DNA from: a virus
Lineage: Duplodnaviria; Heunggongvirae; Uroviricota; Caudoviricetes
IMG/VR virus record: IMGVR_UViG_2713896900_000003
Location: 1 to 6,909 of that record
Length of the DNA: 6,909 nucleotides
Strand: one strand, 5' to 3'
Below the pieces are notes generated by a model that did no database searches, was not told where the DNA came from, and saw only the letters and a list, made by a program, of their open reading frames with translations. Both the position numbers and the translations under genes were made by a program. Positions 6,114-6,909 of the stretch are shown in pieces; positions within the stretch are counted from its first letter, which is position 1; each line of letters begins with the position of its first letter.

Positions 6114-6152
6114 ATTCAGAAAAACATTACGGAGGAAGAAGACGATGGCTAA
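6114..6152 (+). pseudogene. ninF: ninF 3' remnant (last codons only), retained as the translational coupling site for the downstream gene
   Basis: Frame-3 open stretch ending ...ITEEEDDG then TAA (6150-6152), matching the C-terminal EEEDDG of lambda NinF from memory. No start codon and no upstream ninF body. The ATG of the next gene (6145) is embedded in gacgATGgcTAA exactly as at the lambda ninF/ninG junction. Confidence 0.5.
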
Positions 6153-6711
6153 ACCAGCGCGAAGACGATGTAACCGTAAAAGAGAAGATTTAACTGTTAA
6201 AAGGATATTTGAGTTACTAAGTTTCGATAAATCTATCGGGGTATTTAGATGGAAAGTTCCCACTCAGGGAAGGATAGCATTAAATAGTGTTGCTGGAACT
6301 TTTGATTCCAACGGTTATTCAATGATCATGATAGATGGGCGTAGATATAAAACTCACGTCTTAGTTTTTTACATAACTCATAATCGTTGGCCTGCTGGTC
6401 AAATTGACCACGTTAATGGAATTAGGACCGATAATAGGCCAGAAAATTTAAGAGAATGCCTGCCAATAGAAAATTCAAGAAATATAAGGATCCGAAAGAA
6501 TAGCAAATCAGGTTGCAGAGGGGTTACTTGGCACAAACGACAGAAAAAATGGAATGTTAGGCTAGGTTTCCATGGCAAGAGTAAACGCTTCGGATGCTTT
6601 GATGATCTGGAGTTAGCGGTACTAGTTGCTGAAGAAGCCCGAGATAAGTATTACGGTGATTTTTCCGGCAACGAAAGGAGCACTTATGCGAATCTATCGA
6701 AGGAAATGTAA
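6145..6711 (+). CDS. HNH endonuclease with C-terminal AP2 DNA-binding domain (homing-endonuclease-like), N-terminally fused to the first 9 codons of ninG
   Basis: Start ATG 6145 with SD ggagga (6131-6136) and an 8-nt spacer; the track's 6046 ATG has no such support. First 9 residues MAKPARRRC equal the lambda NinG N-terminus. HNH motif in [29 protein letters not shown] (H-N-G ... N ... NL pattern). AP2-like domain in [50 protein letters not shown]. Confidence 0.85.
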
Positions 6712-6909
6712 ATGTTGCAATGAATGGTTTATACCAAAATATCAAAATCAATATTGGTGTAATGAGATTTGTGGAACAAAGATAGCACTCGAACGACGAA
6801 GCAAAGAACGCGAAAAAGCGGAAAAAGCAGCAGAGAAGAAACGACGACGAGAGGAGCAGAAACAGAAAGATAAACTGAAGATTCGAAAACTCGCCTTAAA
6901 GCCCCGCAG
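6686..6909 (+). CDS. ninG: NinG (Rap)-like protein, 5' restart downstream of the HNH insertion; 3' end beyond the window
   Basis: Frame-2 ORF from ATG 6686, preceded by SD aaaggag (6674-6680) with a 5-nt spacer. Translates [74 protein letters not shown]..., which aligns with lambda NinG residues about 7-75 ([51 protein letters not shown]) from memory. Runs off the window end. Confidence 0.75.

Follow-up and report, generated by a model that had tools for sequence, protein, structure and literature searches.

The stretch of DNA analyzed here, hereafter the window, consists of 6,909 nucleotides (nt), positions 1-6,909 of the IMG/VR record IMGVR_UViG_2713896900_000003 (Caudoviricetes), and corresponds to the early-right/nin region of a lambdoid prophage, the genes of which were identified by Pfam and PHROGs. 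At the ninF/ninG boundary, it carries an open reading frame (ORF) for an endonuclease of the HNH-AP2 type, which opens with the first codons of ninG and is followed by a complete ninG gene with a rewritten 5' end. We consider, with a probability of about 0.68, that this arrangement is a free-standing homing-endonuclease cassette of lambdoid prophages, housed neither in an intron nor in an intein. The mobile unit would be made up of the nuclease gene and an altered target region, which is probably resistant to cleavage. The features of the junction region are the following:

6130-6152, plus strand: 3' remnant of ninF (...TEEEDDG), with its stop codon TAA at 6150-6152
6145-6711, plus strand: HNH-AP2 endonuclease ORF of 188 amino acids (aa) and a stop codon, identified by Pfam, PHROG, an AlphaFold (AF2) model compared by Foldseek, and an alignment of homologues; the Prokaryotic Genome Annotation Pipeline (PGAP) calls the same start
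6145-6173, plus strand: lambda-type ninG stub, codons 1-9 (MAKPARRRC) and 2 nt of codon 10
6160-6173, plus strand: left copy of a 14-nt similarity, cgaagacgatgtaa, lambda-type ninG codons RRRC and AA
6174-6769, plus strand: foreign block of low diversity, containing the HNH body and the recoded ninG 5' end, the putative mobile unit
6675-6680, plus strand: Shine-Dalgarno (SD) sequence AAGGAG of the re-initiated ninG, 5 nt before ATG 6686
6686-6909, plus strand, running off the end of the window: hybrid ninG (NinG/Rap; Pfam NinG)
6698-6711, plus strand: right copy of the 14-nt similarity, cgaaggaaatgtaa, recoded ninG codons RRKC and AA

For comparison, 80 loci lacking the HNH gene (HNH-less) and about 60 loci containing it (HNH+) were assembled, from which 57 and 37 distinct ninG sequences were aligned, respectively. 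The window was identical to lambda-type DNA through position 6173, with respect to both HK446 and the consensus of the 57 HNH-less alleles, and AT-rich foreign DNA unrelated to lambda-type ninG began at 6174. An earlier examination of the letters without database searches (the sequence-only reading) had proposed that the HNH ORF opens at the ninG start with MAKPARRRC and leaves ninG at this very position, and the comparison bore it out. The stub, whose DNA is that of HK446/lambda-type ninG, is fused in frame to the HNH body. Its ATG at 6145 is overlapped by the ninF remnant, inside which lies the lambda-type SD sequence of ninG, GGAGG (6131-6135); the same ~22 nt end an intact ninF in 22 other HNH+ loci.

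From 6174 to residue 60, no in-frame ATG, GTG or TTG could be read from the sequence, so that the HNH N-terminal domain, which is conserved, can be translated only from the ninG start that was captured. The borrowing of the ninG initiation site, also put forward in the sequence-only reading, agrees with the annotation of E. coli, in which RefSeq/PGAP calls exactly these two starts, one for HNH and one for ninG.

Among the HNH_3, NUMOD and AP2 domains that had been envisaged for the product, HNH_3 was confirmed by Pfam profile search (PF13392; residues 68-107, nt 6346-6465; 42.7 bits for a cut-off of 24.8), AP2 stayed below its cut-off (PF00847; residues 123-171, nt 6511-6657; 22.8 bits for 33.3) and no NUMOD domain was found in the ORF. 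The protein matched PHROG 99, 'HNH endonuclease' (2e-69); a sequence search of the PDB and NCBIfam returned nothing. In an alignment with five homologues, the presumed catalytic residues D88, H89, N97, N101 and N110 were invariant. Among natural copies, 59 of 61 retain them; N97T and N101S were seen as singletons. The nearest relatives (40-47% identity) include metagenomic proteins and, from Jersey-like Salmonella phages and T5, proteins annotated as homing endonucleases.

These homologues begin 1-4 residues before the position of residue 16-17 of the window protein and end near residue 177. In the AF2 model (mean predicted local distance difference test score, pLDDT, of 77.8), the core was confident, and residues 6-13 (pLDDT below 50) and 175-188 were predicted to be disordered. 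Judged from the model, both ends of the HNH ORF are borrowed, being predicted disordered and absent from the homologues; the C-terminal tail of 11 residues is a read-through across the new ninG SD, its ATG and its first eight codons. The top structural match found by Foldseek in the PDB was I-HmuI (1u3e; probability 0.99, E = 7.6e-3, TM-score 0.37-0.40), followed by the AP2 domains of AtERF1 (1gcc) and WRINKLED1, both with a probability of 1.00. When placed on AtERF1, the model gave a root-mean-square deviation of 1.2 Å over 51 columns, with a modest E-value.

The strong SD and the ATG noticed earlier inside the 3' end of the HNH gene were recovered as AAGGAG (6675-6680) and ATG 6686, from which ninG is read in a frame different from that of the HNH ORF. 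The 74 aa lying in the window match NinG (PF05766, 2e-15); in related loci, the full-length protein has 200-203 aa and the ORF is intact in 53 of 57 cases. A 9-nt (three-codon) difference in the copy number of GAAAAAGCR was observed among HNH+ loci (window ~6800-6830, alignment columns 148-156). For this reason NinG has either 200 or 203 aa in different HNH+ loci, and a 910-nt query aligns to 919 nt of phage AU6Stx1.

The sequence-only reading had described a clean insertion after codon 9, with ninG back at 6698. This had to be corrected, as the foreign block extends to 6769: near-identity to uninterrupted ninG returns at 6770 (TGTGGAAC...). The 84-nt ninG 5' segment at 6686-6769 shows homology to lambda-type codons ~1-30 only when translated and has been thoroughly recoded, with 25-28% GC versus 50% in its lambda-type equivalent. 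By tblastn, the recoded NinG N-terminus is 53.6% identical to that of lambda/HK446 NinG; all four N-terminal Cys residues are retained, with the CX4C spacing changed to CX2C. The cassette replaces ninG codons ~1-28, and the remainder of ninG is the resident lambda-type gene. These alignments indicate that NinG is a hybrid but full-length protein and that the nine-codon stub is a leftover duplicate. The idea of a displaced ninG with a new start was thus right as to the start and wrong as to the displaced remainder.

RNA folds around both start sites were no more stable than those of shuffled sequences (z = 0.69 for the new SD), and there was no evidence for a regulated sequestration of the ribosome-binding site. 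In one HNH+ locus (L003, E. coli PK8241), an element of the insertion sequence (IS) family IS3 was observed at 3008-4320, right after the new AAGGAG and before the ninG ATG, where it removes the HNH tail and separates ninG from its SD.

The foreign block was detected in 538 of 5426 complete E. coli genomes (~10%), all 538 matches covering at least 80% of it. At least 80% of the HNH-ninG query was matched in 532 of the 1110 E. coli genomes having this ninG region, and many E. coli genomes gave several ninG-region matches (median, 2 places per genome). The same arrangement was found in 56 IMG/VR contigs, in Salmonella enterica serovars Infantis and Rubislaw, and in the Shiga toxin 1 (Stx1) phages AU6Stx1 and SH2026Stx1, where it is annotated as 'HNH endonuclease' plus 'NinG'. 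The block is thereby carried by two genera and in at least five contexts. Upstream of HNH lies either an intact ninF, of several alleles, or a cargo insertion leaving ~22 nt of this gene; downstream of ninG come ninH or ninI and then different Q genes.

The left junction was identical in all HNH+ loci examined, namely the 56 IMG/VR contigs, four GenBank/RefSeq records (two Stx1 phages), and three E. coli and one Salmonella chromosomes. The uninterrupted ninG alleles presupposed by an insertion do exist: the site is empty in lambda, in HK446 and in 80 IMG/VR loci with contiguous ninF-ninG. Homologous genomes thus differ in having or lacking the element at a single defined site. The HNH-less alleles show strong conservation of the lambda-type ninG 5' block, which is recoded in every carrier.

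The recoded ninG segment was never found without HNH. Both were carried by 51 of 51 IMG/VR contigs, a back-translated pattern scan of IMG/VR detected recoded NinG in HNH+ contigs only, and the only phage records with recoded ninG were the four belonging to the two HNH+ phages. Several searches were made outside these loci. When the first 40 aa of recoded NinG served as a protein query, nothing but the same E. coli alleles was retrieved, and the best other NinG N-termini found by tblastn in phages were only 54-67% identical to it. A distant blastn of the block against phages returned only the four records of AU6Stx1 and SH2026Stx1. Among GTDB species representatives, the element was not found, and only a planctomycete HNH relative of 38% identity was detected. 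Distant HNH relatives in loci L006, L063 and L064 do not adjoin ninG.

Among HNH+ loci, nucleotide diversity is ~0.004 within 6165-6764, compared with 0.02 directly to the right, 0.03-0.09 further right and 0.08 to the left. The Salmonella Infantis locus was also compared, pair by pair, with eight IMG/VR, E. coli O157:H7 and Stx1-phage loci. The ranges below cover loci with differing flanks (the flanks of L033 are identical to those of the Salmonella locus), and two of the compared loci carry the cargo insertion and have no ninF upstream:

Foreign block: 2-5 differences in 597 nt
ninF: 23-42 differences in 180 nt
Rest of ninG: 14-46 differences in 534 nt

The divergence is thus 0.3-0.8% for the block versus 3-23% for its flanks, the pattern expected after a recent horizontal spread. 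Flank polymorphisms that HNH+ loci share with HNH-less alleles reach up to 2 nt from ATG 6145 on the left and up to 8-30 nt from 6770 on the right; to judge from these sites, the flanks of the block recombine freely.

The HNH ORF, which 59 of 61 copies retain intact, contains 11 synonymous and 12 non-synonymous segregating sites, which corresponds to a ratio of non-synonymous to synonymous polymorphism (pN/pS) of ~0.29 (binomial p = 0.004), and by this measure it shows purifying selection. Degenerate copies were observed as well: a 1-nt deletion causing a frameshift in L062, and the N97T and N101S singletons in IMG/VR loci. Such rare copies are the decay expected late in the life cycle of a homing endonuclease.

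In the cassette, the resident ribosome-binding site, ATG and first nine codons of ninG are joined in frame to the endonuclease body, and the 3' tail of its ORF contains the SD and the ATG from which NinG is restarted. According to the homing model, the enzyme probably acts on the conserved lambda-type 5' part of ninG, either at the insertion point or slightly downstream. During lytic growth beside an HNH-less lambdoid genome, the enzyme would nick or cut lambda-type ninG at or just downstream of codon 10, and the break would be repaired from the HNH+ copy. For this repair, homology would be provided on the left by ninF and ninG codons 1-9, and on the right by ninG from codon ~29. In this way, the 596-bp block would be copied into the new genome, and the carrier allele would remain uncut due to the recoded segment and the disruption of the original site.

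Since NinG function would be preserved, the insertion would cost the phage little. The sequence-only reading had also spoken of the invasion of an essential phage operon. This does not apply, as the lambda nin region, ninG included, can be deleted (nin5 deletion). That reading was correct in outline when it proposed a homing-endonuclease-type insertion; it was mistaken about how far the insert extends, what the junction repeat means and whether the operon is essential.

The main rival to the homing model is that a mosaic block was passed on passively, through ordinary recombination. A single illegitimate recombination would have joined a foreign HNH-ninG' segment to lambda-type ninG, and the product would have spread later by homologous recombination and by the clonal expansion of enterohemorrhagic and enteropathogenic E. 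coli (EHEC/EPEC), the endonuclease being inactive or irrelevant. Such a history would suit the high mosaicism of the nin regions, with their numerous alleles of ninF and ninG, and the origin of many HNH+ genomes in related lineages of Shiga toxin-producing E. coli. It would also suit the few copies in which invariant HNH-motif residues are replaced (N97T, N101S) or the unit is damaged by a frameshift or IS3. However, both immediate flanks are 5-20 times more diverged than the block in two genera and at least five backbones, the HNH ORF is mostly intact and shows purifying selection, and the HNH relatives form a large family of phage homing endonucleases. We therefore regard passive spread as unlikely.

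Purifying selection would also be compatible with a history in which the HNH-AP2 nuclease was domesticated, that is, kept for the benefit of the phage and not as a selfish element, for instance to exclude rival lambdoid phages or to help recombination together with NinG/Rap. The constant linkage and translational overlap of the gene with ninG, which encodes a junction nuclease of the His-Me finger type, could be taken in the same sense. Furthermore, when T4 and T2 infect together, the progeny frequently inherit the free-standing seg endonucleases of T4 (PMC2988022). Nevertheless, the sequences give no sign of a partnership with NinG and most lambdoid phages do without the HNH gene, and a nuclease that excluded rivals by cutting their ninG would work just as in the homing model. 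Domestication is, in our opinion, quite improbable.

The sequence-only reading had further pointed to an imperfect 14-bp direct repeat at the junctions. The similarity is present, with 11 of 14 positions identical between the left and right copies, and the HNH stop codon TAA (6709-6711) is formed within the right copy, as had been noticed, in a frame other than that of ninG. Its meaning as a junction repeat did not stand. Between 6050 and 6909, 32 pairs of 11 identities in 14 were observed, against 30.3 ± 9.5 in shuffled sequences. As bare DNA, the similarity is at chance level; it has a meaning only through the homologous NinG residues, RR(R/K)CK, for which each copy codes. A target-site duplication was accordingly rejected, since the two copies are one set of ninG codons (RRRCK/RRKCK) that occurs twice. 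A search for terminal inverted repeats gave none.

Group I introns and inteins frequently harbor HNH genes, and a similarity does exist at the junctions. Even so, there is hardly any chance that the HNH gene is embedded in a self-splicing intron or in an intein (no Rfam match at E <= 1 in 5600-6909; HNH and ninG in separate frames, ninG having its own SD and ATG, which makes protein splicing impossible), or that it belongs to a transposable element with a target-site duplication (no exact direct repeat, no terminal inverted repeats, no transposase by Pfam).

Several points weigh against the homing cassette itself. The nuclease activity, the target site and homing are only inferred, the AP2 match does not reach the gathering score of Pfam, and Foldseek gave modest E-values, all of them above 1e-3. 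The recoded segment may be an adaptation for immunity or simply donor sequence, and the donor lineage of the block was not found by protein, tblastn, pattern or DNA searches. The nin regions are mosaic anyway, and a neutral block could spread in them by general recombination. Finally, if HNH+ and HNH-less alleles share one genome, the enzyme would be silent in lysogens or weak.

The other genes of the window, as identified by Pfam/PHROGs, and the large ORF upstream of the cassette are the following:

127-741: O-like C-terminus
738-1439: P
1436-1726: Ren-like
2148-2594: NinB
2564-3118: Dam-type methyltransferase
3025-3297: NinE
3801-5573, minus strand: 590-aa ORF, function unknown (PHROG 9230 only)

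The Dam-type N6-adenine methyltransferase gene lies between ninB and ninE and overlaps the end of ninB by ~30 nt; its start as called by PGAP/RefSeq is later than that of the longest ORF. Between ninE and the ninF remnant, an AT-rich cargo insertion (24-45% GC) occupies 3300-6129 of the window and has removed all of ninF except ~22 nt. It is the upstream neighbor of HNH in 38 of 60 tabulated loci (IMG/VR). Its 590-aa ORF gave no Pfam or NCBIfam match and is labelled 'hypothetical protein' in AU6Stx1 and E. coli. Upstream of the start of this ORF, an intergenic perfect tandem repeat of the hexamer TATTTC (x 8.8, 5898-5950) was observed, a candidate slipped-strand or phase-variable tract. In addition, a GC-rich terminator-like hairpin followed by a T-run is present on the plus strand at 6001-6027, ~120 nt upstream of the HNH/ninG start (4 overlapping predictions versus 0.9 expected); it would lie on the route of pR transcription to ninG-Q.

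In an extended form of the homing model, the cassette would be actively homing in Stx and other EHEC/EPEC prophages, and the breaks in ninG would drive gene conversion moving the neighboring cargo between backbones, namely the AT-rich 590-aa moron upstream and the Q-stx region downstream. We hold this extension to be doubtful. If true, it would make the cassette a motor of the mosaicism of virulence prophages, like the 'HEG islands' of homing-endonuclease genes proposed for lytic phages.

If the homing model is correct, the cassette is a clear and very common natural example of a free-standing homing endonuclease settled in a coding sequence without an intron or intein. It captures the initiation signals of its host gene and replaces the 5' end by a rewritten one that has its own ribosome-binding site; the host gene therefore stays whole. 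This explains the odd NinG N-terminus in ~10% of complete E. coli genomes, and why an 'HNH endonuclease' opens with NinG residues. Provided that the enzyme is active, it would also create a defined recombination hotspot in the nin region of prophages carrying Shiga toxin and effectors. The significance is limited by the fact that neither the components nor the family nor the general strategy is new, the element belonging to a well-known class, that both genes are already annotated in hundreds of genomes, and that the nin region is non-essential. In a full-text literature search, an HNH gene in ninG, with start capture and a replacement 5' end, was not found described.

Among known systems, I-HmuI (PDB 1U3E), the HNH nicking endonuclease of Bacillus phage SPO1, has an HNH_3-type catalytic core after a beta-sheet DNA-binding region, a layout that the ninG-locus protein probably shares, but it is intron-encoded, has 15% identity with the ninG-locus protein and ends in a helix-turn-helix C-terminal domain instead of an AP2-like one. 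The HNH-AP2 family, which includes IPA-HNH of ICP1 as well as cyanobacterial and phage members, has the same order of domains, HNH then AP2, occurs in phages and adjoins conserved genes at boundaries of genetic exchange (PMC10448857 and its ref. 45). Whereas the domains of ICP1 IPA-HNH are too divergent for the Pfam HNH_3 profile, the ninG-locus protein matches it directly; its sequence identity to any characterized HNH-AP2 member is low.

'Intronless homing', described for the seg and mob genes of T4 (PMC2988022), is the mode that the ninG element would follow. As with SegF, SegG and MobE of the T-even phages, the nuclease gene of the present element is set in or between conserved phage genes, and no intron or intein surrounds it; such genes are present or absent among homologous genomes, are inherited with short flanking tracts, and accompany a carrier allele whose sequence differs from that of the sensitive allele (PMC2988022). 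The T-even enzymes differ in being GIY-YIG or HNH proteins of lytic phages, with their own starts and mapped cleavage sites, whereas the ninG element resides in temperate lambdoid prophages, has its ORF fused to the first nine codons of its neighbor and encodes a putative enzyme. A further case is gene 31 of the P22-like Salmonella phage epsilon34, where a putative HNH homing endonuclease continues in frame from the N-terminus of eaE (PMC2629481). Both are found in lambdoid/P22-like temperate phages, and in both the HNH ORF borrows a resident N-terminus and start. Gene 31, however, belongs to the early left operon and to an HNH lineage related to Lactobacillus phage enzymes, and no re-initiated copy of the resident gene is described for it (PMC2629481).

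A parallel in gene organization is mobE in nrdA of Aeromonas phage Aeh1, the 'genes-in-pieces' case of Friedrich et al. (2007), in which an HNH homing-endonuclease gene likewise lies inside a coding sequence (cited in PMC2988022 and PMC10448857) and the host gene continues from a new downstream start and is still functional (PMC2988022); mobA in T4 gene 39/60 is a further insertion of this kind. There, the host protein is divided into two polypeptides that must reassemble. In ninG, by contrast, all that remains of the old 5' end is a nine-codon stub, and the gene downstream is complete thanks to the new N-terminus that comes with the cassette.

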